DNA of 64,000 nt from Clostridia bacterium (GTDB lineage Bacteria > Bacillota > Clostridia > TANB77 > CAG-508), in NCBI GenBank assembly GCA_022794055.1, contig JAAWEA010000044.1, positions 19,006-83,005 on the forward strand. Reading direction: 5' to 3'. The position numbers and the translations under genes are program-made. Under the pieces are notes generated by a model. The model was given only the letters and a program-made list of their open reading frames with translations, had not been told where the DNA came from and did no database searches. This document shows, piece by piece, positions 1-27,520 of the stretch (position 1 is its first letter; each line of letters opens with the position of its first letter).

Positions 1-1635
1 GGAATAAATCTTGCTGAAGGATTAGTTGGTAGCATAGACAAATACTTATCACAAAATGTTGAAAGAATAAAATCCTTCATAGTTAATATGTTTAATATAT
101 CAAGTAAAGATTTACAACTAACAGGGAATTTATGGCAAGCATTAGGAGAAATATCAGATGTATTTAAAAGTGATACTGCAAAACAAATAGGAGCGGATAT
201 TATTGCTATGTTTACAAATCCTTTAATGAGCGTTATTGAACTATGTGGAAAATTTGTTCTTGATTTGAAAGGCATATTGTTTCAACCTATTATAGATAAT
301 GCAGAAAAAATAAAAAATACTATTAAAAATGTAATGAAACCAATACAAACATTTACTGGAACTTTAGCAGAAGCGATGACTTATGTTGGAGATAAATGGA
401 ACGAAGTTTATGATGGACATATACATCCTTTAATGGAAAGTTTAAAGGCAGGTTTAAGTGATACTTTTGGAAAATTTCTTGATGTTTATAATACTTATGT
501 CGTACCAATGTTACAAAGAATGGCTGATGGATTTAATGAATTATGGAATACTCATTTAAAACCATTTGTTGATAAGGTTGGAGAACTTATAGGAAGTATT
601 GCAGATGCAATTACGGCTCTTTGGAATAATATTTTAAAACCAGTTGTTGATTGGATAGTACAAAATATTATTCCAGTTTTAGTTCCTATTTTTGAAGGAA
701 TTTGGAATACAATAAGTGCTGTTTTTGGAGCTATAACAGATGTAATAGGTGGAATTATACAAACTTTTCAAGGTTTGATAGACTTTGTTGTAGGAATATT
801 TACTGGAGATTGGAACAAAGCTTGGCAAGGAATATGTGATTTCTTTACTGGAATTTGGAATGCAATTAAAGGAATTTTTTCTGCTATATGGAGTGTAATC
901 ACAGGAATTGTAACAACGGCAGTAAATATTATAAAAGGTATAATAACAACTGTATTTAATGTCATAAAAACCGTTATTACAACAATTTTTAATGCTATAA
1001 AAACAGTTGTAATGACAGTCTGGAATGCTATATCTACTGTAATATCAAATGTAGTAAATGGAATCAAAAATACAATATCGAATGTTTTTAATGGAATAAA
1101 AAATACTATTACTAATATTTTTAATGCTGTAAAAAACACTATTACTAATATTTGGAATGGAATATGGGGAACAATTAAAGGCGTAATAAATAATATTCTA
1201 GGTGGAATCGAAGGTTTTGTTAATGGAATTGTAAAGGGTATTAATATTGTTCTAGGTGGAATAAGTGATGTCGCAAATGCAGTTGGCTCTTTAATAGGAT
1301 TAGATCCTGTTAATTTAAGATTAAATCCAGTGTCATTACCACGCCTTGCACAAGGTGGTTATGTAAAAGCAAACACACCTCAATTAGCAGTTATTGGTGA
1401 TAATAAACATCAAGGAGAGGTTGTTGCACCTGAAGATAAAATGCTAGATATGATTTTGACAGCTTTAAAAATGTTTCAGGATCAAAATTCAACTCAAAAT
1501 AACAAATCTCAAGGACAAAATATTACACTTAACTTTAATGGAACAATGTCACAATTGATTAGAGTATTAAAACCTGAACTAGACAGAGAAAGTAAAAGAA
1601 AAGGTAATAAATTAATTATAGGAGGTACAACATAA
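1..1635 (+). CDS. phage tail tape-measure protein (5'-partial, continues upstream of window)
   Basis: Frame 1 is open from nt 1, so the gene starts upstream of the window. The protein carries long runs of degenerate ~11-aa repeats (GIWNAIKGIFSAIWSVITGIVTTAVNIIKGIITTVFNVIKTVITTIFNAIKT...) typical of tape-measure proteins. It is followed by tail genes and a lysis cassette. Confidence 0.75.
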   Translation, partial: GINLAEGLVGSIDKYLSQNVERIKSFIVNMFNISSKDLQLTGNLWQALGEISDVFKSDTAKQIGADIIAMFTNPLMSVIELCGKFVLDLKGILFQPIIDNAEKIKNTIKNVMKPIQTFTGTLAEAMTYVGDKWNEVYDGHIHPLMESLKAGLSDTFGKFLDVYNTYVVPMLQRMADGFNELWNTHLKPFVDKVGELIGSIADAITALWNNILKPVVDWIVQNIIPVLVPIFEGIWNTISAVFGAITDVIGGIIQTFQGLIDFVVGIFTGDWNKAWQGICDFFTGIWNAIKGIFSAIWSVITGIVTTAVNIIKGIITTVFNVIKTVITTIFNAIKTVVMTVWNAISTVISNVVNGIKNTISNVFNGIKNTITNIFNAVKNTITNIWNGIWGTIKGVINNILGGIEGFVNGIVKGINIVLGGISDVANAVGSLIGLDPVNLRLNPVSLPRLAQGGYVKANTPQLAVIGDNKHQGEVVAPEDKMLDMILTALKMFQDQNSTQNNKSQGQNITLNFNGTMSQLIRVLKPELDRESKRKGNKLIIGGTT

Positions 1636-2021
1636 TGGCGGAAAAATTTGACTTTATAATACTTGATGGACAACAATATAACATTGGTGTATATGCAAAC
1701 ATAAAAGAAAAAGCTGATTTTTTAGATAAATATGCAAATAGAACAGATGATGGAGATTTAAAAAGAGAATTAATTGGTGTATACTTCAATTTTACTGACA
1801 TTAAGTTTGAACCTCAAGTTGATAGTAATTATGATGAATTTGAAAGATTATGGAATAAACTAACAGAACCAGAGGAATTTCATAATGTCAAAATTGCTAA
1901 TTTTGAATTTATGGCTTATTTCAATAATGTTTCAAGAGAAATCTATGATTTTAAAAATGGAAAAGCATACAGAAAAGATATGACTGTAAACTTTACAGCT
2001 AAAAGACCAGCAAGGAGTTGA
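1635..2021 (+). CDS. phage tail component protein (distal tail/baseplate-like, unassigned)
   Basis: 128-aa ORF whose start overlaps the tape-measure stop (ATGA). Its position directly downstream of the tape-measure gene is the only basis for the call. Confidence 0.4.
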   Translation: MAEKFDFIILDGQQYNIGVYANIKEKADFLDKYANRTDDGDLKRELIGVYFNFTDIKFEPQVDSNYDEFERLWNKLTEPEEFHNVKIANFEFMAYFNNVSREIYDFKNGKAYRKDMTVNFTAKRPARS

Positions 2022-3826
2022 TGATTATGAAAACAAAAACACAGATAGAATTTGGATTTGTTGATGTTACAGCAAAGTCTGATAGTCAATTAAGTATTAC
2101 AGATAAACAAACTTTTGTTAATTTGGAAGATTTAAAACGAAACGATATTGAAGAAGTAAAATATGCAACTTTAGAAAGAAATCAATTTGTATTAGATGGA
2201 ACATTTGAATTAATGCCTGATGTATTAAATGATATGTGCTTATGGTCAAGCAGTATGAGTGATGAGTTAGGAATATTTGAAAAATCTCCTATATTAGTAA
2301 TTAACTTTAGTGAACCACATAGCAGTTTAGGTTTAACATTGTTATTTAGCAAAGCTGGAGATTATTGTAATCATTTAAATATAACATATTATGATAAAGA
2401 TAATCAATTAATAAATGATACAGATTTCTATCCTGATAATTATCAATATGTATGTAATAATGTTGTAGAAAACTATCAAAAAATAATTATTATTTTTTAT
2501 GGTACAAATAATCCATATAGATACTTGAAATTATATAAAATATTATATGGAGCAAATAAAGTTTTTGAAGGCGATAATTTAATAAGTGCTAATATACTTG
2601 AGGAAATTGATTTATTAGGTTCAGAGGTTAGTATAAACACTCTAGGTTTTAAAGTTTATTCTGTAGATGATGAATTTAATATTATAAATCCCACTGGTTT
2701 TTATAGTTTATTGCAAGAAAGACAAGCCTTTAAAGTAAAAGAAATATTTACAAAAGAAAATAAAATAATTGATATGGGGGCTTTTTATCTTGATTCTTGG
2801 AAAAATGAAAAAGATAAAATTATGCAATTTGAAGCTATTGATCTAATTGGAATCATTAATAAAACTAACTTTTATGGTGGGATGTATATAAAAGTTAAAT
2901 TTGAAGATTTAATAAAAGAAATTATGTTATCAGCAAATGTAGATGAAAATAACTTTGAAATTCAAGAAGATTTAAAAGATATTGAAATAACAGGTTATAT
3001 TCCAGTTTGTACACATAGAGAAGCTTTACAGCAAGCAGTATTTGCTATTGGAGCAATAGCAGATTGCAGTAGAAGTGATAAAATCAAAATATATACAGTT
3101 GTTTATAAAGAAGATAATAATACTATTAAACAAACTAATGTATTTCAAGGGACAAAAACTATTGAACAAAACGATATAGTAACAGGAGTTTCAATAACAG
3201 CTCATAACTACATCAAAGGTTCTGAAATAACAGAAGTTTACAAAGGAATATTAGAAGCGGGAGATAATATAGTTTTATTTAATGATCCTGTTTCTGATAT
3301 TTCTTGTACAGGTGGAACTATTAAAGAATATAATTGTAATTATGCAATTATACATTGTGTAGCTGATAATACAGAAATTATAGTAAATGGATATAAATAT
3401 GAAGATAATACAAGAATTGTGTTAGTAGAAGTTGAAGAGTTAACTTCTTCAGAAAAGTTAAATACTTTGAAAGTAGAAACTGCATATCTTATAAATAATG
3501 ATAATGCTCAAGCTATTGCTAAAAATGTATTAGATTATTACCAAAAAACATATACTACAAAATTTGATTTTATTCTAAACGAAGAAAAACTAACAGAAGA
3601 TAGTGCGATTGAAAGTAATAGTTTTAATAGGCAATTAGTAGGCCCTATTAAAAAATTAGATATAGATTTAACTGGTGGTTTTTTAGCAAGTGCTGAAATA
3701 AATGCAAGAGTAAGATTACTAACTGTTACAAGAGAAGCTAATTTATCATATAAATTAGCTTCAATTTTAGTAAGAACTACTTATGAACAATTGCCAGTTA
3801 TGGGAGGAGAGGAAAGCAATGGATAA
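2018..3826 (+). CDS. phage tail protein (tail-associated / minor structural protein, about 600 aa)
   Basis: 602-aa ORF translationally coupled to the previous gene (ATGA overlap). Its size and its position after the tape-measure gene are typical of a Tal-like or tail endopeptidase-like protein. Confidence 0.45.
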   Translation: MMIMKTKTQIEFGFVDVTAKSDSQLSITDKQTFVNLEDLKRNDIEEVKYATLERNQFVLDGTFELMPDVLNDMCLWSSSMSDELGIFEKSPILVINFSEPHSSLGLTLLFSKAGDYCNHLNITYYDKDNQLINDTDFYPDNYQYVCNNVVENYQKIIIIFYGTNNPYRYLKLYKILYGANKVFEGDNLISANILEEIDLLGSEVSINTLGFKVYSVDDEFNIINPTGFYSLLQERQAFKVKEIFTKENKIIDMGAFYLDSWKNEKDKIMQFEAIDLIGIINKTNFYGGMYIKVKFEDLIKEIMLSANVDENNFEIQEDLKDIEITGYIPVCTHREALQQAVFAIGAIADCSRSDKIKIYTVVYKEDNNTIKQTNVFQGTKTIEQNDIVTGVSITAHNYIKGSEITEVYKGILEAGDNIVLFNDPVSDISCTGGTIKEYNCNYAIIHCVADNTEIIVNGYKYEDNTRIVLVEVEELTSSEKLNTLKVETAYLINNDNAQAIAKNVLDYYQKTYTTKFDFILNEEKLTEDSAIESNSFNRQLVGPIKKLDIDLTGGFLASAEINARVRLLTVTREANLSYKLASILVRTTYEQLPVMGGEESNG

Positions 3827-4373
3827 TTTAATATATGATAGAACTTTAGACGATGTTGAAACAGCTTTAATTAATGCTGGTAGTAGAATCAACTTAAAAG
3901 GAAGTTACAATTATACTGATTTGAATAGAGTAGAAAATTGGTGCAAGTACATAGAAGAAATATTAAAAAAATATGGCTTTTCTCAAAATTTAGAAATTAA
4001 AACAAATTGGTTTTTAACTGACTATCCTACTAGAAAAGAAATTGACAGAATAAGAAGCAATATAGATACATTAAAAGAATTTTGCTATGCATTAAAAACA
4101 GAAACAATAAGTTATGATAATACTTTAAATTATGAACAAGCAAATATACTAGAAAGAATATTATATGATATAGATGAATACATAAGAAGTCAAAGTAGAA
4201 AATTAGATATACCATATAATTTTGGATTTACTTTAATTCGTAAAAAATTTATTGATTTAATAATAAATACAGATATAATTGATTATTCTTATAAGAAACA
4301 ATTAACAACAGAAAATAATATTTTTGTAATAACAGAAGATGAAAAAATTTTAAGAACAGAATGGGGGGATTAA
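3819..4373 (+). CDS. phage structural/hypothetical protein
   Basis: In-frame ATG at 3819 preceded by GGAGGAGAGG. Lies inside the prophage tail module. Confidence 0.4.
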   Translation: MDNLIYDRTLDDVETALINAGSRINLKGSYNYTDLNRVENWCKYIEEILKKYGFSQNLEIKTNWFLTDYPTRKEIDRIRSNIDTLKEFCYALKTETISYDNTLNYEQANILERILYDIDEYIRSQSRKLDIPYNFGFTLIRKKFIDLIINTDIIDYSYKKQLTTENNIFVITEDEKILRTEWGD

Positions 4374-4376
4374 TAT

Positions 4377-5363
4377 ATGGCTTATGGTGTAACTTACATA
4401 ACTACACAAGGAGCAATTTTAGCAGCTAAAACATTACAAGCAAAAACATTAACATTTTCAAAATTTCAAATAGGTGATGGAACTATTGAAAATTCTAGTA
4501 TGGAAAATATAAAAGCTTTAGATGATTTAGTAAATAAAGTTGTAGAATTTGATATAACAAAAATTTCAAGAGAAACAGATACACAAATAACTGTTAGAGG
4601 ACTATTTAAAAATACAGATGCTGAAGATTCATTTTATTTAAGAGAATTAGGTTTATATGCAATTGATCCTGACACAAATGAAGAAATATTATTCGCATAT
4701 ATAAATTATGGAGATGAAGCAGAGTATATAAATAACTCTATATCAGAGAAAAAAGAGAATTATTATAATATGATTATAGCAGTAGGTAATGCAGATAATG
4801 TAACAATATCGACAGATGAATCTACAGTATATGTAACAGAAAGAGATTTAGAAGAAATTAAACAAAAATTAGCAAATGCAGGAAATAAAAGTGAATATTT
4901 ATTAAAAAATGATATAAAAACTTTTTATATAAAATTAAAAGTTGGAAATCAAAATATTGAATATCCTGAAGGATTTAATAAAAATAATACTATTGTATTG
5001 AAGTGTATGAAAAAAAGTGGAGGTAATTGGATTACTTCAGAAATGGATAATGCAGGGGATATGCACAATGTTGCTAATATATGGTTGCAAGACAATAACA
5101 TTTTTATACAAGGAGAATTTGAAAAAGAATATAAGATAGTATTAATGAAATCAGTTGAATTTGATATAAGTGATTATGAATTAGGTGATATTAACAAGGA
5201 TGGTTCAATAACACAAGAAGATATAAATATAGTTAGCAATTATTTAACTGGATTAGGAACATTGACAGAAGAACAATTCAAATTAGCAGATATGAATGAA
5301 GATGGAATGGTTGATACTGCTGATTTACTTGCACTATCAAAGAAAGTAAATGGAATAACATAG
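4377..5363 (+). CDS. phage tail-collar fibre protein with C-terminal type-I dockerin module
   Basis: The N-terminus (YITTQGAILAAKTLQAKTLTFSKFQIGDGT) matches the phage tail-collar fibre N-domain pattern. The last ~60 aa contain two 22-aa dockerin-type Ca-binding segments, DINKDGSITQEDINIVSNYL and DMNEDGMVDTADLLALSKKV. Confidence 0.65.
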   Translation: MAYGVTYITTQGAILAAKTLQAKTLTFSKFQIGDGTIENSSMENIKALDDLVNKVVEFDITKISRETDTQITVRGLFKNTDAEDSFYLRELGLYAIDPDTNEEILFAYINYGDEAEYINNSISEKKENYYNMIIAVGNADNVTISTDESTVYVTERDLEEIKQKLANAGNKSEYLLKNDIKTFYIKLKVGNQNIEYPEGFNKNNTIVLKCMKKSGGNWITSEMDNAGDMHNVANIWLQDNNIFIQGEFEKEYKIVLMKSVEFDISDYELGDINKDGSITQEDINIVSNYLTGLGTLTEEQFKLADMNEDGMVDTADLLALSKKVNGIT

Positions 5364-5377
5364 AAGGAGGAATATAA

Positions 5378-5956
5378 ATGGCAGATACAATTAAATTAAG
5401 CGAAATGTCAGAAGCAGAAGAAATAAACGAAGATGATTTATTAATGATAGTTCAAAATGGAATTAACAAAAAGATAAAAGCAAAAAAAATGGGAAAAAGT
5501 TCAACAGTAATAGAAGATACTTTAGAAAGTGATAGTACAACAAATGCACTATCAGCTAATCAAGGTAAGTTGTTAAATGAGAAGATAAATAATCAAGAAG
5601 AAGTATTGAATAATATAAATATTTATTCAACAGATGAAATAAATACAGGGAAAAAATGGATAAATGGAAAACCGATGTATAGAAAGATAATTCAATTTAC
5701 ATTATCTAATAATAGTTCAGTAGATTTATCTAGTTTGAATTTTGAAGATGGAATCATTGAATGGGGTAGAATAATATTAACTTCTGGTGGTTTAAAATAT
5801 ATAGATATATTACCATATTCAAGTGGTAGTAGCACATATTGTTGGATGCAAATAGTTCATAATGGTTCAAAATGGCTATTTGCAACTCCTCATACAGCTG
5901 ATGCAAATGGAGCTACTGTTGAAGCTTGTTTATTATACACAAAAACAACAGATTAG
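5378..5956 (+). CDS. phage protein (putative tail fibre-associated / hypothetical)
   Basis: 192-aa ORF with GGAGGA RBS, between the fibre gene and the holin. Confidence 0.35.
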   Translation: MADTIKLSEMSEAEEINEDDLLMIVQNGINKKIKAKKMGKSSTVIEDTLESDSTTNALSANQGKLLNEKINNQEEVLNNINIYSTDEINTGKKWINGKPMYRKIIQFTLSNNSSVDLSSLNFEDGIIEWGRIILTSGGLKYIDILPYSSGSSTYCWMQIVHNGSKWLFATPHTADANGATVEACLLYTKTTD

Positions 5957-5973
5957 AAAGAGAGGGAAAAATT

Positions 5974-6324
5974 ATGGAAGAAATAATGCAAAATATACAT
6001 TTTACAAATATTTGGTGGGCGATAGCAGTTCCACTGATTTTAATGATATTAGATATATTAACAGGATTAGTAATAGCGTGGAGAAATGGAGACTTTAAAA
6101 GTTCAGTAATGAGAACAGGCTTGTCAAAGAAATTTGGCGAGCTTGTTTACGTTTTAATAGGAATATTAACAAAGTTTGCATTAGGAACTGAACTAATTCT
6201 ATATTTTACAGTAGGATATATATGTTTAATGGAAATATCAAGTTTAGCAGAAAACTGCGATAAATTAGGAGTTAAAATGCCAGATAAATTAAAAGAAAAA
6301 TTAAATAATGATAAGGAGGAATAA
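5974..6324 (+). CDS. phage holin
   Basis: ATG at 5974 after GAGAGGGA. Small protein (MEEIMQNIHFTNIWWAIAVPLILMILDILTGLVIAWRNGDF...) with two or three TM helices and a charged C-terminus, immediately upstream of the amidase gene. Confidence 0.7.
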   Translation: MEEIMQNIHFTNIWWAIAVPLILMILDILTGLVIAWRNGDFKSSVMRTGLSKKFGELVYVLIGILTKFALGTELILYFTVGYICLMEISSLAENCDKLGVKMPDKLKEKLNNDKEE

Positions 6325-6326
6325 TT

Positions 6327-7241
6327 ATGAAAATATTATTAATAAGTGGACATGGAGCAGGAGATGTAGGTGCTTGTGGAAATGGTTATAAAGAAGCAGA
6401 TTTGACAAGAGAAGTAGTAAATATATTAGCTCCAAAATTAAGACAATATGCACAAGTAGATATTTATAATCAAAGTAGAAATGCTTATACGGACGTTTGT
6501 AAAGGTAATACTGTTGTAAACTTTGCAAACTATAATTATGTATTTGAAGTACACTTTAATGCTGGAGGTGGAAAAGGAACAGAAATATATGTAACAAGAG
6601 AAGAAAAAGCAACAAATGTAGAACAAAAAGTAATGAACAAATTATCTAAATTTTTCACTGTTAGAGGAGTAAAAAGGCAAAACTTTGCTGTTATAAATTC
6701 TGTTAAGAAAAAAGGTATAAGTTCAGCTTTATTGGAAACATGTTTCATAGATAATGCAAATGATATTAATACATATCAAAACAATAAGGAAGCTATTTGT
6801 AGTGCAATTTGTGAAGGAATTATAGAAGGATTTGGATTAAAACAAAATACATCTAATACATTAGATCTACAATACAAAGCACATATTCAAGATATAGGTT
6901 GGACAGATTGGAAAAATGCAGGAGAAGTAGCTGGAACAACAGGACAAGACAAAAGAGTTGAAGCTATAATCTTACAAGGAAACAATGGATTAGATTTAAA
7001 ATATAGAGTACACATGGAAAATTTAGGCTGGAGTAATTGGATAAGTAATGGAGAAATTGCAGGTACTACTGGTCAAAGTAGAAGAATAGAAGCAATCGAA
7101 ATCCAATCAAATAAAATGTTAGAAGTACAAGAACATATACAGAATGTAGGCTGGATGCCTTCTTCAAAAGGAAATTCAATAAGAGTAGGAACAGAAGGTA
7201 AAGCGTTAAGATTAGAAGCTTTTAAAATTAGAGTTATATAA
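6327..7241 (+). CDS. N-acetylmuramoyl-L-alanine amidase endolysin (amidase_3 type) with three C-terminal cell-wall-binding repeats
   Basis: The N-terminus (MKILLISGHGAGDVGACGNGYKEADLTREV) is the MurNAc-LAA (CwlD-like) signature. The C-terminus has three ~36-aa repeats (HIQDIGWTDWKNAGEVAGTTGQDKRVEAI / HMENLGWSNWISNGEIAGTTGQSRRIEAI / HIQNVGWMPSSKGNSIRVGTEGKALRLEAF). Confidence 0.85.
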   Translation: MKILLISGHGAGDVGACGNGYKEADLTREVVNILAPKLRQYAQVDIYNQSRNAYTDVCKGNTVVNFANYNYVFEVHFNAGGGKGTEIYVTREEKATNVEQKVMNKLSKFFTVRGVKRQNFAVINSVKKKGISSALLETCFIDNANDINTYQNNKEAICSAICEGIIEGFGLKQNTSNTLDLQYKAHIQDIGWTDWKNAGEVAGTTGQDKRVEAIILQGNNGLDLKYRVHMENLGWSNWISNGEIAGTTGQSRRIEAIEIQSNKMLEVQEHIQNVGWMPSSKGNSIRVGTEGKALRLEAFKIRVI

Positions 7242-7378: not shown

Positions 7379-7627
7379 TTATATTGTTTTATTAATATTT
7401 TTATTTATTTTTACTTTTTTTCTAATTATTTTTTTTCTTATAATAATATCTCCTGGTTCACATTCTAAAATTTTACACATTTTTTCTAATGTTTCAAATT
7501 TAATTCCAGTAGTAGAATTATCCATTAAATGAGATAATGACTGATATCCTCCTTCCATATTTTTAATAAACCAATATTTTGTCTTCTTTTTTTCCTTTAG
7601 TATTTCATTTACTCGTACATATATCAT
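7379..7627 (-). CDS. XRE-family helix-turn-helix transcriptional regulator
   Basis: 82 aa. Contains YQSLSHLMDNSTTGIKFETLEKMCKILECEPGDII, which is Cro/CI-type HTH architecture. Confidence 0.6.
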   Translation of the reverse strand: MIYVRVNEILKEKKKTKYWFIKNMEGGYQSLSHLMDNSTTGIKFETLEKMCKILECEPGDIIIRKKIIRKKVKINKNINKTI

Positions 7628-8298
7628 ATTTTCACCTCACTTTCATTATAGATATTGTAAAACAAAGTATAGTTTATTTTAACTACAATACATTTAAGTT
7701 AAATGTATAATACCTAATTTACAAAATAGGTATAAAAATGATATAATAACACTAGCAATAAAAACAAAAAGAGGTGCTATTGTATGAGCAAAAATATTAT
7801 TGATTCATTAGATAATATAAAGAAACTTATAGAAGAAGAAAACTATCAAGAAGCTATAAATTATATAGAGAAAACAAAAACAGAAATAAAAACAGGAAGA
7901 GATGTATCTAATTATATGGATAGTTTAATAAATGATTTAAAGTAGAAAAAAGTAGAAAAATGTCGAACCTTAAAATGTAATTGTGATAAGGAATATCTAT
8001 GTTAATACCTAACACACAGTATAGTTATTTTTATTTACATAATTTGGTATAATATATAAAGAGATATCTTAAATCTAAATTCATAAGGAGGTTCAATATG
8101 AAATTAAATATATTAGATAAAATGTTATTATATATATTAAAAAAATATTCATATAAAATATATAGGCGTGGGGTACAAGATGGATTTAATTGGAACAATA
8201 AAATAAATTCACAAGGCTGTAACAAGGCTGTACCAATATTAAAAATTAAAAGAAAAGATATAAAGTGAAAAATACTAAATATAAACGGAGAGTAATGA

Positions 8299-9040
8299 AT
8301 GAGAAATATAAAATTAACAATAGAATATGATGGAAAAGACTTTAATGGATGGCAAAAACAGCCCGATAAATTGAATATACAAGGGACAATAGAGCAAGCA
8401 ATTAATAAAGTTACAGGAGAGGAAGTAGAATTAAATGCTTCTGGGAGAACAGATGCTGGTGTACATGCGTTACGGTCAAGTTGCAAATTTTAAAACAAAT
8501 ATGAATATACCAATTGATAAAATATCTATTGCATTAAATTCAAATCTAAAAAAATCAATTAGAATTATAAAGGCAGAAGAAGTAGAGGAAAGATTTCATA
8601 GTAGGTTAAGTTGCAAAAGAAAAACATATAGATATATTATTAATAATTCAGAATATTCATCAGCAATTTATAGAACATTAGAAACACATATTCCTCAAAG
8701 ATTAGATGTTGAAAAAATGAAGATAGCAGCTAAGTTTTTTGAAGGAGAGCATGACTTCAAGGCATTTAAATCAAGTGGAACAAGCAGTAAAAGTAGTATA
8801 AGGACTATTTACAAGGCAGATGTTAGGGAAATTGCTAATAATAGAATCTATATAGAACTCACAGGAAATGGATTTTTATATAATATGGTAAGAATTATTA
8901 GTGGTACATTAGTAGAAGTTGGCATGAATAAAATACAACCAGAGGATATAAAAGATATTATTGAAAAAAAAGATAGAAGCTTAGCAGGAAAAACATTACC
9001 ACCTCATGGATTATATCTGGTAAGTGTAGAATACCAATAA
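8299..9040 (+). pseudogene. truA: tRNA pseudouridine(38-40) synthase TruA, disrupted by +1 frameshift (single C insertion near 8472)
   Basis: ORF 8299..8493 (MRNIKLTIEYDGKDFNGWQKQ...GRTDAGVHAL) and ORF 8435..9040 (...GQVANFKTNMNIPIDK...) are the N and C parts of TruA. Removing the C in TTA-C-GGT restores GRTDAGVHALGQVANF. Confidence 0.75.
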
Positions 9041-10875: not shown

Positions 10876-13197
10876 TTATTTTTTCTTTTTAAAGTTTACA
10901 ACTATTGCATCTTCATTATCAAATAAATAATTTGAATCTGTTATGTCGGTTTGAATTGGGTTAATTTCATCTTTTTCATCTTTAAAATCAATATTTTTTA
11001 AATTGAATTTTTTCTTTTGCTGCATATCATTATTGGATTTAGTTGATGTTATTACACCATCTGAATATTTTCCAAAATCATAAGATTTTATTTTTTGTGG
11101 TTCTTTATACTTTGATTCTAGATAGTTAAGTCTACCTAATCCAACCATAGGCTTACCATTTTCACCTCTTACTTTATATCCACAGTCTTTAGTAGAAAGT
11201 GTTTGCAATTTTCCAGGTTTAAAATAAGGAACAAATGCCCATTTAATACCATTATATTTAGGTTCCATTTCAAGAGTATCTGTTTTAATATTTTCAGTAT
11301 ATGTCCATTCCCTTTTTTGTCCAAATTCATTACTCCACCACTCTAGTTCATCTATACTACCATGACCTGTAAAGATTTTACTAGCACAATTTGATAGAAT
11401 TGTCTGTTTTAGTTTTTCTTTTTCTTTTGAATTTCCTAATTGCTCTAAGTTTTGAGCTGAAATTGTAGTACCTATTTTATATTTACGATACATAGTAAAT
11501 ATTGGTTCAGTAGCACTGCATATAAAATCTGGAAACTCATCAATATATAAAAAGTTTGGGACTCTAGATTTTTCAGTTCCAGGTCTTCTAAGAACTGCAT
11601 TTTGCATTGAAATTAAGAAGAATAATCCAAATGCTCTATGACTAGATTGTCCTAAATCACCACGTCTAGTACAAACAAATATAATATCTCCATTTTCAAG
11701 CATTTTATCAAAGTCTATATTTTGATGACGATTACATAAAATAGTTTTTACACCAGGTATTCTTAATAATTTATCTAATTGACTTATAATGATATCAATA
11801 TATCTTTCTGTATTTGCTCTTCCAGAACCAGTTTTATAAAAGTTTTTTCTAAAATAAGAAATTTGTGTAGAATATTTTTCTTTTAAATCTTCATCATGAG
11901 CTAGAATTTCACACATTTTTTCTACTAAATCAAAATTCGTAAACATTTTTAACATATCTTCTAAATTTGGTAAAAGTCCATCATTCATTTTTGGATACAT
12001 TTCTTTTAATAAAAGTGAAATGTTCTCAATTGCTTGCATTACAACAGATTCACGGTAAGACTCTTCTGTTTCATCATTAGAGATTGCAAACATTGTTTTT
12101 AGAATTGATGAAATGTTAATTGCAATTTTATTAGCATCATCATAAACAAAAGGATTTAAACCAATAGAACTTTTATCAGCTGGATCTATGATTTTATAGT
12201 CTAATCCAAAATTTTTACAAACAGATATCATGTCTGTTGAAATTTCTTTATCTGGAGACATAACTGTAATACCACAATTTTTATAAGTAATGTCAGAAGA
12301 GCTGTCTAAAATCATTTTTTTCATATATCCTTTGTAGACTTCTTCTTTACCAGTTGTTGGAATTAACATGTTTAAATTAAAATTTTTGTTTAAATAGTCA
12401 TTATCATAAGGGGCATTTAAACTTGCAATTCTAGTTTTTAAAGCAGTATATCCCATTTCTTTTGCAATCTCACGAAAGAAAAATTTTTTTTCTAAATCTC
12501 TCGCAATTAAAGGTTCAAAAACTAAAGATGTTTTTCCAGAACCAGATCCTCCACATACAAACATTGATTGGTATCTAGATGCTTCAGGTATAGTAATCAT
12601 TTTTGCAGTTTCAAAATCTTGACATAAGAATACTTCACAAGTATATGGACCATGACCAGATTTTTTATCAGATAAATCAATTCCACCATAATCCCAAATA
12701 GAACGAACTCTAAGATCATTGTCTTGAACATCATAATATAAGTAATCAAATACTTTAGGAAATAAAATTAGAGGAAATATAAGTGTTAATGAAGTAAGAG
12801 CAGGTCTAATTAAATTTGAGAAATCAGTTATTAGTTCTACATATCCTGGATTTGAAATTAGTAATAACCAAGCTCCCATATTAATCCACTGAGTAAACAT
12901 AGAGACAACTATAGAAGCTAATGCAATCATATACACATAGAAAAATGTTACTTTTTGTTTTTTATTTTTTGAAAATTCAGATGATGGAGAAAATGCAAAA
13001 GCAAATGCTGGACATGCTATTGCAAGTGTATATTGTATTGGTCCCCAATAAGAGTATGATACACCAGTAAATAACATTAATAACATCTCAACAATACGAT
13101 CAACTGCTAAATAAATAGTAATTAATGTTAAGATGTATGTAACAAATGTATTTCTACTAACTCCTAATTTTTTTAAAAATTTATCTATTATTTTCAT
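10876..13197 (-). CDS. membrane-anchored P-loop ATPase, TraG/TraD/VirD4-type (type IV coupling protein-like)
   Basis: About 4 N-terminal TM helices. Walker A is VCGGSGSGKTS. The motif ITVMSPDKE...IIDPADKSSIGLNPF matches the T4CP 'DPKGE...DP...NPL' pattern. Walker B-like is LYIDEFPDF. Confidence 0.6.
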   Translation of the reverse strand: MKIIDKFLKKLGVSRNTFVTYILTLITIYLAVDRIVEMLLMLFTGVSYSYWGPIQYTLAIACPAFAFAFSPSSEFSKNKKQKVTFFYVYMIALASIVVSMFTQWINMGAWLLLISNPGYVELITDFSNLIRPALTSLTLIFPLILFPKVFDYLYYDVQDNDLRVRSIWDYGGIDLSDKKSGHGPYTCEVFLCQDFETAKMITIPEASRYQSMFVCGGSGSGKTSLVFEPLIARDLEKKFFFREIAKEMGYTALKTRIASLNAPYDNDYLNKNFNLNMLIPTTGKEEVYKGYMKKMILDSSSDITYKNCGITVMSPDKEISTDMISVCKNFGLDYKIIDPADKSSIGLNPFVYDDANKIAINISSILKTMFAISNDETEESYRESVVMQAIENISLLLKEMYPKMNDGLLPNLEDMLKMFTNFDLVEKMCEILAHDEDLKEKYSTQISYFRKNFYKTGSGRANTERYIDIIISQLDKLLRIPGVKTILCNRHQNIDFDKMLENGDIIFVCTRRGDLGQSSHRAFGLFFLISMQNAVLRRPGTEKSRVPNFLYIDEFPDFICSATEPIFTMYRKYKIGTTISAQNLEQLGNSKEKEKLKQTILSNCASKIFTGHGSIDELEWWSNEFGQKREWTYTENIKTDTLEMEPKYNGIKWAFVPYFKPGKLQTLSTKDCGYKVRGENGKPMVGLGRLNYLESKYKEPQKIKSYDFGKYSDGVITSTKSNNDMQQKKKFNLKNIDFKDEKDEINPIQTDITDSNYLFDNEDAIVVNFKKKK

Positions 13198-25473: not shown

Positions 25474-26823
25474 TTAATAGTAAATTTCTAATTGTTGAGA
25501 GAAATATTCATCATCTTTTGTTGTAGTTAAATTGACATTATTGTTCTTTTTTAATATTTGTGTAATTTCCCATAGTCCAAGTCCAGTATGATTTTCTTTT
25601 TCACTATAACCTTTATTAAATATTGTGTTTATATCAATATCTTTATTTTTATAAGTATTTTCTATTAAAACTATATTTCTATTATTTTTAGTATCATTTC
25701 TAAAAACAATATTTAATACTTTTTTATCACATTCTGATGTGGCTTCAATACTATTATCTAACAATATTCCTAGTATTCTTGTGAATTCATATATTTTCAT
25801 ATTTATATCATTTAAATCAAGTAAAAATGTTAAGTTTACTTTTATTCCTTTTTCTTCAGCTTGATTATATTTTGTTGTAAGTAAATTATATATACCTGGA
25901 TTGTTAACAATATCTGGATTTAGAATATATAAATTATTTACTTTTTCACAGTCTTCTTGTAATTGTGAATAATATTTTTCTAGACCTTTCATATCATTTG
26001 TTTTTATATAGCCACCAATTGTTGTTACAATATTATCAAAGTCATGTTTAAAACCTCTAACATTATCATGTAGAATATGTAATGTTTTGTTATATTCTTC
26101 TGAACTCTCTAATTTCTGTTTAGTTGTAGCCAATGACATAATTTTTGCTAAACTAAAGAAACTTAAACCAAAATAAATAATTAAACTGATAAAATTAAAA
26201 AAAGTAAATTGGATAGGTAGTATATCAGTATAATTATATGTTAATATAACTTGCATTACTATATTAAAAAATCCAAATATAAAATTTAAAGTAACAATAG
26301 ATTTATTAGTTTTATCAAAATTTTCTATTATGTTTATAGCAATTTTTCTATATTTTAATATAAAAGCAAAAATATATACTATTAAATACATTAAAATCGA
26401 AAAAGGTATTCTAAAAATTGGAATTGTAGTAGCCTGTTCAGTAGAAATGTCAAAAATATTTAGATAGGGTGTAAAAATTAAACCACCAACTAAACTAAAA
26501 ATAATGCCAGGATAGACAGCAGCAATTAATGTCTTTAATATATTCATTTTAAAGATAAAATGTACAAGTACAAATGCTGAAATATAATTAAAAATAACAT
26601 TATATGGTGATTTTATAAGAAACATTGCTAGTAATGCTATACTTGCAGTTGTAATTATATAAGTATATTTTTGTCTTTTGGAACAATCAACTTTAAAGGC
26701 ATTTCTTATAAGTAAGAACATTAATGGTGCTTCTATAAAAATATTTAGGAATATATAACATATATTTATTAAAAGTTGATTTGGAGTAGTAATAGCATTC
26801 CAAAAACTATTAAAAATGTCCAT
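25474..26823 (-). CDS. AgrC-like sensor histidine kinase (GHKL/HATPase_c_5 with polytopic sensor domain)
   Basis: Six or seven N-terminal TM helices. The C-terminus (GYSEKENHTGLGLWEITQILKK) is the AgrC/LytS-type ATPase G-box. Its start overlaps the upstream LytTR regulator gene. Confidence 0.7.
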   Translation of the reverse strand: MDIFNSFWNAITTPNQLLINICYIFLNIFIEAPLMFLLIRNAFKVDCSKRQKYTYIITTASIALLAMFLIKSPYNVIFNYISAFVLVHFIFKMNILKTLIAAVYPGIIFSLVGGLIFTPYLNIFDISTEQATTIPIFRIPFSILMYLIVYIFAFILKYRKIAINIIENFDKTNKSIVTLNFIFGFFNIVMQVILTYNYTDILPIQFTFFNFISLIIYFGLSFFSLAKIMSLATTKQKLESSEEYNKTLHILHDNVRGFKHDFDNIVTTIGGYIKTNDMKGLEKYYSQLQEDCEKVNNLYILNPDIVNNPGIYNLLTTKYNQAEEKGIKVNLTFLLDLNDINMKIYEFTRILGILLDNSIEATSECDKKVLNIVFRNDTKNNRNIVLIENTYKNKDIDINTIFNKGYSEKENHTGLGLWEITQILKKNNNVNLTTTKDDEYFSQQLEIYY

Positions 26824-27520
26824 ATTTTTTAACCTCCTCGATTAAAGTCTTTTTATATTTAGGACCAATATCACAAGTGGAGCCATTATCAAAATATATT
26901 AAATCTTCTACAGGATCTAAATTAATAAGATTATTAACATTTACTATAAATGATTTATGAGACCTAATAAAATTAGAAGGTAAAGAATCTTGAATTTTGA
27001 CAAATGAACTATAAGTTTCATAATCTCTATTTTTAGTATGAAATATTAATTTCATAGCATCACGTTTAATATATAAAATTTCATCTTCAGCAATAATGGT
27101 TTTCTTATTATCAATCTTTATATATTTTTTAGGACACCCATTAACATCATCAAATAATCGAATAATAGTTTCTTCTAATCTTTCATAAGTAATAGGTTTA
27201 GCTAAATAATCAAATGTTTTAAATCTATAAGCCATCATTGCATATTCTAAATGAGCAGTTGTAAATATAAAATAAGTGTCTTTATATTTTTTTCTTACAA
27301 GAGATGCTATTTCTAAACCAGATTTATCAGATTTTAAATTAATATCTAAAATTAATACATCAGTTTTATTATCATCTACATAATCTAATAGTTCATCAAC
27401 ATTATCTGTTTTAAAACCAATTTGTGCATCATAGTTATGTTTAATAAAAATACTTTCTAGTATTTTAGAAAATTTATCTAAAATATTCAGGTTATCATCA
27501 CATATTACAAAGTTTAACAT
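26810..27520 (-). CDS. LytTR-family response regulator (AgrA/VirR-like)
   Basis: Receiver domain (VICDDN...DVLILDINL...) plus a C-terminal LytTR DNA-binding domain (IRSHKSFIVNVNNLINLD). Confidence 0.85.
   Translation of the reverse strand: MLNFVICDDNLNILDKFSKILESIFIKHNYDAQIGFKTDNVDELLDYVDDNKTDVLILDINLKSDKSGLEIASLVRKKYKDTYFIFTTAHLEYAMMAYRFKTFDYLAKPITYERLEETIIRLFDDVNGCPKKYIKIDNKKTIIAEDEILYIKRDAMKLIFHTKNRDYETYSSFVKIQDSLPSNFIRSHKSFIVNVNNLINLDPVEDLIYFDNGSTCDIGPKYKKTLIEEVKKYGHF

Follow-up and report, generated by a model that had tools for sequence, protein, structure and literature searches.

The described systems closest to the element discussed here are bacterial. In Clostridium thermocellum the type I dockerin of Xyn10B (PDB 1OHZ, 2CCL) is part of a secreted enzyme; in Clostridium perfringens NagH/NagJ (PDB 2OZN), and in the Ruminococcus bromii amylosome, what is assembled is bacterial enzymes or toxins. 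The dockerin considered here is borne by a phage. It is the C-terminal module of a tail-fibre protein encoded in a prophage of an uncultured Clostridia bacterium, at positions 4377..5363 (+) of a stretch of 64,000 nucleotides (nt) of contig JAAWEA010000044.1, called here the window; the open reading frame (ORF), with an ATG start and 328 amino acids (aa) plus stop, is present as the first-pass annotation of this DNA gave it. The phage module shares with the Xyn10B dockerin its Pfam family, two 22-residue repeats, the D-x-N-x-D-G…D loop followed by an F-helix, and a predicted three-helix fold. It differs in its setting, which is a virion tail fibre and not a secreted enzyme, with no signal peptide and no catalytic or carbohydrate-binding module (CBM); nor is the host of the phage known as cellulolytic.

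On the phage side, the receptor-binding proteins (RBPs) of siphophages of Gram-positive bacteria, such as lactococcal p2 and TP901-1, carry an exchangeable C-terminal head that itself binds saccharides. The protein described here has a similar plan, in which the N-terminal attachment part is conserved and the distal head can be exchanged (DUF6273, a bare β-sandwich head, or that head plus a dockerin); we know of no dockerin or other bacterial protein-protein docking module described at the tip of RBPs of this type. Ig-like and BACON virion domains, the subject of the ‘bacteriophage adherence to mucus’ model, are weak glycan binders carried mostly on capsids. Like them, the dockerin is a binding module that a structural protein may or may not carry; unlike them, it is a high-specificity protein-protein docking module at the tip of a fibre.

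That this tail-collar fibre ends in a dockerin was proposed in the first-pass annotation, and the profile search it called for bears the proposal out: Dockerin_1 (PF00404) matches residues 269-325 (5181..5351, +) over the whole profile (1-57 of 57) with E 4.8e-13 and a score of 49.5 bits, where the gathering cut-off is 22.9, a match well outside the reach of chance. The two calcium-binding segments quoted there are both present, DINKDGSITQEDINIVSNYL at residues 271-290 (nt 5187-5246) and DMNEDGMVDTADLLALSKKV at residues 305-324 (nt 5289-5348), but the linker between them (TGLGTLTEEQFKLA) is 14 aa long, not ~12. Each of the two tandem segments consists of a 12-residue EF-hand-like loop and a helix, as a dockerin segment should. 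As read from the sequence, the ligands of loop 1, DINKDGSITQED (5187..5222, +), would be D271, N273, D275, T279 and D282; those of loop 2, DMNEDGMVDTAD (5289..5324, +), which begins 34 residues past loop 1, would be D305, N307, D309, D313 and D316. A search of PDB sequences with phmmer returns dockerins exclusively (8x39, 3ul4_B, 4fl4_A, 2ccl_B/1ohz_B, 6kg9), and the model of the module, a predicted three-helix fold, superposes at 0.7-0.9 Å on type I dockerins of C. thermocellum, at 31-32% identity. Two other identities for the module were considered and rejected. One, a generic EF-hand-like fold, had been named in that annotation among the findings that would refute its claim: EF-hand families remain under their Pfam cut-offs and cover one loop only. 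The other is an autocleaved C-terminal chaperone of the Peptidase_S74 type: in Pfam its signature is absent, and the domain is a dockerin.

Conservation was followed through 57 non-identical phage dockerins linked to the same head domain. In both segments D occupies positions 1 and 12 in 100%; N or D is found at position 3 in at least 98%, D or N at position 5 in 100%, and G at position 6 in more than 91%; the loop-to-loop spacing is 34 residues in 53 of 56. The loss of D/N calcium ligands, of which the earlier annotation had warned, is thus not seen. Lineages differ at positions 10, 11, 17 and 18, through which characterised dockerins contact cohesins and set their specificity. Between the window gene and its relative in a related phage (L009), the ratio of nonsynonymous to synonymous substitution rates (dN/dS) is 0.22 for the dockerin (dS 0.40), 0.29 for the N-terminal domain and 0.43 for the head; the dockerin is under strong purifying selection. 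The module is very probably a true dockerin, and one in which the residues predicted as Ca2+ ligands are conserved. The epithet ‘canonical type I’ is better softened to ‘type-I-like’: the nearest structural and sequence neighbours are type I dockerins, and Pfam detects no X-module, but type is set by partner and phylogeny, and strict type I is not assignable without the partner cohesin.

The rest of the protein is that of a phage fibre. Residues 6-154 (4392..4838, +) match PF12571 (Phage_tail_fib) in Pfam above its cut-off (E 2.6e-9) and presumably attach the fibre to the baseplate; the N-terminal ~170 aa belong to PHROGs ‘tail fiber protein’ families (phrog_7037, E 2.4e-38). With this domain and a position in the tail module, the protein belongs to the PF12571 tail-fibre group. 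Its N-terminus, MAYGVTYITTQGAILAAK…, is fibre domain, with no signal peptide, and Pfam finds no carbohydrate-active enzyme (CAZyme) or CBM match anywhere in it; because signal peptide, catalytic module and CBM are all missing, it is not an enzyme subunit of a cellulosome or amylosome. Between the attachment domain and the dockerin lies a part that the earlier anatomy of the fibre missed, a β-sandwich head domain at residues ~175-262 (4899..5162, +), with the motifs YPEGFNKNN and YKIVLMK, of a family without prior description. The fibre is thus built of four parts: the attachment domain, a short helical neck, the head, and the dockerin on a linker of 8-10 residues.

This scaffold can end in other ways. 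Among the best 120 relatives listed from a collection of 5.8 billion proteins, the N-terminal domain occurs with a dockerin only in P0001, the identical protein (NCBI ‘MAG Clostridia bacterium’ HFJ59_04100; MAG, metagenome-assembled genome), and in P0002, which is 81% identical. The remainder are 66-78% identical over the N-terminal ~170 aa and have DUF6273 (PF19789) as their C-terminus instead; more than 100 gut-phage fibres share the N-domain in this way. A further relative, P0004 (274 aa), is the same fibre ending right after the head, without the dockerin. The DUF6273, bare-head and head-plus-dockerin relatives therefore represent one scaffold with three C-terminal forms.

The head leads to a much larger family. 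Searching with the C-terminal half of the fibre brings up standalone proteins of ~180 aa composed of head and dockerin, and a profile of the head alone recovers 114 proteins from a word-indexed collection; an exhaustive search of 1.84 billion representatives yields 741 clusters at E<=1e-3 and 260 at E<=1e-10. The window fibre fits the family profile (A3), with its YPxGFN…YKIVLMK β-domain near the C-terminus. Eighty of the 116 aligned members end 1-3 residues past YKIVLMK; the other 36 continue with a short linker and a dockerin of ~70-75 aa. Among the top 150 representatives, dockerin loops are present in 22 of 123 new ones, or ~23% overall once members found earlier are included, which places the share of the family with a dockerin directly after the head at about 23-31%. 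Longer members (up to 654 aa) carry the head at the extreme C-terminus, once behind tail-fibre repeats. No Pfam or PHROG family corresponds to the head, and no significant match, by sequence or by Foldseek, relates it to known siphophage RBP heads; it is a previously undescribed β-sandwich family, found as a rule as the C-terminal tip of phage tail proteins. A dockerin added beyond it is probably exposed at the tip of the fibre.

The union of head and dockerin occurs in at least five gene architectures, and every context examined is a phage tail cassette. In the window and in L009 it is joined to the PF12571 N-domain; in an unrelated siphovirus of the HK97 type (L010-L013) it forms a gene of ~180-220 aa between the Dit/baseplate genes and a large variable fibre; elsewhere it adjoins fibres of Gp10_C or lectin-like type (L014, L015); on IMG/VR viral contigs it is found in proteins of 191 and 361 aa, the dockerin being present in 8 of 12 head-bearing contigs; and it recurs in prophages of Clostridia and Clostridiaceae MAGs (L019-L022). 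All loci with head and dockerin have a GC content of 25-31%. The standalone head genes, with or without dockerin, have a peculiarity of their own: an ATG, served by a ribosome-binding site of GGAGG type, falls within the preceding gene (207-267 aa), ~65 nt from its 3' end and in a different frame (L010 9935, L014 3816, L019 9908, L020 9851, L103/L107/L109 7866), and opens a hydrophobic N-terminus of ~20 aa that closes with a conserved ‘GSK’. Two readings offer themselves: the N-terminus may truly be a hydrophobic anchor or attachment helix, or the site may be one of conserved frameshifting, by which both proteins are joined into a longer fibre.

In the window prophage the order of the tail genes is tape measure, 128-aa, 602-aa and 196-aa proteins, dockerin fibre, second fibre, holin and endolysin. 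The second fibre (192 aa; 5378..5956, +; Phage_fiber_rpt in Pfam) can be compared with its counterpart in L009 (3064-4053): the first 31 residues are 87% identical, the distal part 39%, and the counterpart holds a Collar/Gp10_C insertion of 148 aa, while the dockerin fibres of the two phages are 83% identical. This is a clear modular exchange beside a conserved gene, and the second fibre is likely a fast-evolving determinant of host range.

A dockerin calls for a cohesin, and candidate receptors come from MAGs of other gut Clostridia of low GC (28-31%). These encode proteins of ~1,560-1,590 aa with a signal peptide, NPCBM and F5/8-type-C domains and a dockerin; directly after each such enzyme stands a protein of 254-289 aa whose signal peptide precedes a single cohesin (PF00963, matched above cut-off at E ~1e-8); a stalk rich in N, G and S leads on to the motif LPxAG or IPQTG, after which come a hydrophobic helix and a basic tail. 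L061 has a sortase gene next. The arrangement looks, from its gene content, like a minimal non-cellulosomal system for anchoring an enzyme to the cell surface; the operon is conserved at L028 5492-11099, L061 5528-12259, L073 5477-11156 and L080 5474-11210. ScaE of Ruminococcus flavefaciens typifies the sortase-anchored, single-cohesin anchoring scaffoldin. The candidates resemble it in signal peptide, single cohesin, stalk, sorting motif with membrane helix and, in L061, the adjacent sortase; they differ in that they come from MAGs other than that of the window host, and as binders of the phage dockerin they are candidates only. Dockerins are also found in low-GC Clostridia MAGs on proteins with BspA-LRR and CAP domains and on proteins with CHAP and ricin domains.

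The interpretation favoured here, tentatively and at a little under an even chance, is that the dockerin is a calcium-dependent adsorption module for a cohesin on the host cell surface. The fibre would be carried on the virion as a trimer, as membership of its family suggests, with the dockerins pointing outward from the distal end; these would bind, in a Ca-dependent manner, a cohesin displayed on the host cell wall, on the model of the sortase-anchored single-cohesin proteins of other low-GC gut Clostridia. The cohesin would then serve as a high-affinity protein receptor for adsorption, a second contact being provided by the neighbouring fast-diversifying fibre, by the head domain, or by both; the phage would be imitating its host's own enzyme-anchoring plug. 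What speaks for this is the tip position, documented by the members that stop after the head motif, those that add the dockerin, and the dockerin-free P0004; the recurrence of head and dockerin in phage tail cassettes; the functional constraint, with calcium positions ~100% conserved, positions 10, 11, 17 and 18 variable and a low dN/dS; the existence of plausible receptors; and a two-fibre logic, in which the downstream fibre is swapped or diverged while the dockerin fibre is kept.

A number of observations weigh on the other side. A local cohesin hidden Markov model (HMM), run on all six reading frames of the 64-kb window, of a further 20 kb of host DNA from both sides of the prophage and of 10 kb of phage DNA upstream, detected no cohesin; the DNA so covered is a small part of the host genome, and the HMM is narrow, with positive controls at E ~1e-80. 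It was used in place of a batch Pfam scan of the window ORFs, which reports the top 25 families only and cannot exclude a cohesin. Pfam Cohesin is likewise absent from the neighbours of the fibre, from the tail proteins of six other dockerin-bearing phages and from the largest host ORFs. A contig scan with dockerin-derived patterns (A1) gave mostly ordinary bacterial dockerins, the window's own genome lying outside the species representatives scanned. No shared orthologues were found that would tie the MAGs with cohesin anchors to the window host; among the 80 loci returned, no MAG with a head-plus-dockerin prophage shows the enzyme/cohesin operon. The putative recognition residues are Q-E (segment 1) and T-A (segment 2) in the phage and A-T in both segments of the cohesin-adjacent enzymes; they differ, and the partner is therefore not predictable from them. 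Many dockerin-like modules occur in organisms without a known cohesin. Finally, the full-length AlphaFold2 model of the fibre is poor (mean confidence, pLDDT, 45.6); it was unusable, and was replaced by a model of the C-terminal module built from the alignment of 116 sequences. The earlier suggestion of an adhesin for host cohesins thus keeps its plausibility from the sortase-anchored cohesins of other MAGs; with no cohesin in the sequences searched, neither it nor the companion idea of a cohesin-tagged partner goes beyond inference.

Other functions can be envisaged for the same module. The dockerin could tether the phage to cohesin scaffolds other than the entry receptor, on food particles, mucin or other cells, leaving infection to a different fibre; the enzyme complexes so exploited might be free or occupied, and the phage would wait at the feeding sites of its host, much as Ig-like capsid domains hold phages in mucus. 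Such tethering is unlikely, but it accords with the presence, beside the dockerin fibre, of a second one that diversifies rapidly, with the optional character of the dockerin (23-31% of the family), which implies that it is dispensable for basic fibre function, and with the non-cellulosomal dockerin enzymes bearing lectin or CBM-like modules in low-GC gut Clostridia; placement at the very tip and strong purifying selection suit a receptor role at least equally. Also improbable is a dockerin fold that has nothing to do with cohesins, acting as a Ca2+-dependent stabiliser or folding aid of the tip or binding another ligand (a glycan or surface protein). The failure to find a cohesin in any host or phage sequence searched is consistent with this, as is the wide occurrence of dockerin-like modules in organisms without identified cohesins; moreover, the invariant residues are calcium ligands, which a purely structural role would keep too. 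Against it, dockerin-free heads are the majority, so that the tip evidently folds without one, and Pfam shows no chaperone signature of the Peptidase_S74 type; the variable positions 10, 11, 17 and 18 coincide with the known cohesin contacts, and all close structural neighbours are dockerins that bind cohesin.

The companion idea of the first-pass annotation was that the dockerin recruits a cohesin-tagged partner, phage-encoded or host-derived, such as an enzyme or an alternative RBP, and makes the fibre a modular adaptor. The standalone head-plus-dockerin genes do sit amid small and large uncharacterised tail genes; yet Pfam Cohesin is missing from the tail-module neighbours in all six phage contexts, a cohesin profile aligned by hhalign to each of four tail proteins of this prophage, the second fibre and the 128-, 602- and 196-aa proteins, gives a probability below 1%, scans of IMG/VR (with narrow patterns) find no relative of the cohesin anchors, and the genes downstream of the dockerin gene vary from phage to phage. 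Recruitment is accordingly quite improbable. Least probable, and effectively refuted, is a gene without virion function, a decaying or chimeric relic or an artefact of MAG assembly. The MAG source and the poor full-length model would fit it; however, at least 8 independent runs yield the same sequence (the identical protein is on 12 contigs, of which the 8 shown represent 8 separate sequencing runs), the frame is intact, the dockerin is under constraint, and the same architecture occurs in unrelated phages.

Across the tail and lysis region of the prophage the window is matched at 100% identity by contigs from 8 sequencing runs; one of them, L001 5625-11760, equals window 1-6136 at 100% identity and shows that the prophage runs on past the left edge of the window. 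Contigs from other samples supply the upstream genes: a tail terminator, small tail proteins, chaperones and the 994-aa tape measure (L001-L003), of which the C-terminal ~515 aa are present here (88..1635, +, from the ORF list). There follow a 128-aa tail-tip protein directly after it (1635..2021, +; no Pfam match), a baseplate or tail-tip protein of ~600 aa, so named from its position (2018..3826, +; phrog_13879, E 1.7e-91), and a tail-module protein of 184-196 aa (3783..4373, +; phrog_18725), which is 84% identical in the related phage L009. As no sheath gene is present in the tail module, upstream genes included, the tail appears to be non-contractile. Beyond the two fibres lie the holin (Phage_holin_4_1; 5974..6324, +) and an endolysin with Amidase_3 and three ChW repeats (6327..7241, +). 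The right arm, 7382-8270, consists of a Cro/C1-type helix-turn-helix protein (HTH_26; 7382..7627, -) and two small ORFs (53 and 56 aa), which may be cargo or regulatory genes. The prophage-host junction is at 8260..8280: prophage-free strains, in which truA follows cdaA directly, match from 8271 onward only, and two contigs, L002 and L006, break at window position 8346. Integration of the prophage, between cdaA and truA, is genuine.

The truA gene (8299-9040) is itself split into ORFs of 64 aa and ~195-201 aa, with an apparent +1 frameshift at ~8468-8472, within the conserved motif DAGVHA-L-GQVANF. All independent assemblies, with the prophage or without it, have this split (64 aa + 195 aa), which is therefore not a one-off assembly error. 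Other host genes of the window, which has a GC content of ~26%, include GerA, YqfD, UvrC, RNase R, BipA, LonC and GlmS; BipA falls in the same 90%-identity cluster as that of ‘Clostridium sp. CAG:470 / 28_17’. The host is an uncultured, spore-forming gut Clostridia bacterium of ~26% GC. Amid its housekeeping and sporulation genes stands a lone type IV coupling protein of the TraG/VirD4 kind (773 aa; 10876-13197, -); no further conjugation genes are in view, and other strains keep the protein at this site. At 25474-27520 (-) a GHKL (HATPase_c_5) histidine kinase adjoins an ORF of 236 aa; together with an AgrB-family match among the window ORFs, not assigned to a position, this suggests an agr-type quorum-sensing locus near the kinase.

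No phage tail protein with a natural dockerin is reported in the searchable literature. The nearest items are the dockerin domains on a contig of a putative virus of anaerobic methanotrophic archaea (ANME; PMC13452462) and a remark on structural similarity made for an E. coli phage tailspike (PMC5967307). One annotated relative is UniProt A0A8S5M688 (BFVD), named automatically ‘Dockerin type 1 [Myoviridae sp. ctCL221]’, for which no publication was found: it is a viral metagenome protein of 211 aa and a member of the head family, and its alignment to the head-plus-dockerin model spans 206 columns (E 2.4e-12). It differs from the window fibre in being a small standalone protein without the PF12571 N-domain, and its annotation is automatic only. 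A tblastn search with the dockerin against 50,697 annotated phage records gave six matches. Two INPHARED entries entitled ‘Bacteriophage sp.’, MT835815.1 (L017) and MT836339.1 (L018), were examined and rejected as precedents: they look like bacterial scaffolds mislabelled as phage, for the dockerin proteins have signal peptides, the genes around them include gyrB and those for an aminopeptidase, a two-component system and a CCA-adding enzyme, and the vicinity lacks phage genes. Another of the six matches is in Ruminococcus phage NatCom_28274 (PV036439.1; ‘Heliusvirales’), whose host is cultured: it encodes (L016 538-1626) a 362-aa hypothetical protein with a full Dockerin_1 match (E 7e-12) and a weak match to the starch-binding CBM26, which may be a phage-encoded component of amylosome type and is unlike the head-plus-dockerin fibres in design. 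The fibre had at first been called unusual in architecture; this is right in so far as neither PHROGs nor the searchable literature contains the architecture and annotated phage genomes have almost none of it, and needs correction for metagenomes, where it recurs through the 741-cluster family. What is new is the combination, a bacterial docking plug at the tip of a receptor-binding fibre, across lineages, on an undescribed head domain.

Next to nothing is known of the receptors used by phages of uncultured gut Clostridia, and a dockerin at the fibre tip names a testable class of them, the cohesin-bearing wall proteins; it also links phage adsorption with cohesin-dockerin assembly, two fields not joined before. 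Apart from any receptor, a sizeable family of fibre-tip heads, 741 clusters lying outside Pfam and PHROGs, is brought to light. It is possible, if somewhat doubtful, that phages of low-GC gut Clostridia have repeatedly captured a dockerin for the tips of their receptor-binding fibres, using wall-anchored cohesins as high-affinity, Ca-dependent receptors. If so, this would be a new class of phage-receptor pair, arising by mimicry of a host assembly system, and the orthogonal plug and socket would offer a natural modular handle of nanomolar affinity for retargeting or engineering phage host range. Phage and enzymes would compete for the same sockets; phages would exert selection on cohesin-dockerin specificity, with an arms race at the specificity residues; and the puzzlingly high numbers of non-cellulosomal dockerins and cohesins in gut metagenomes would be explained in part.

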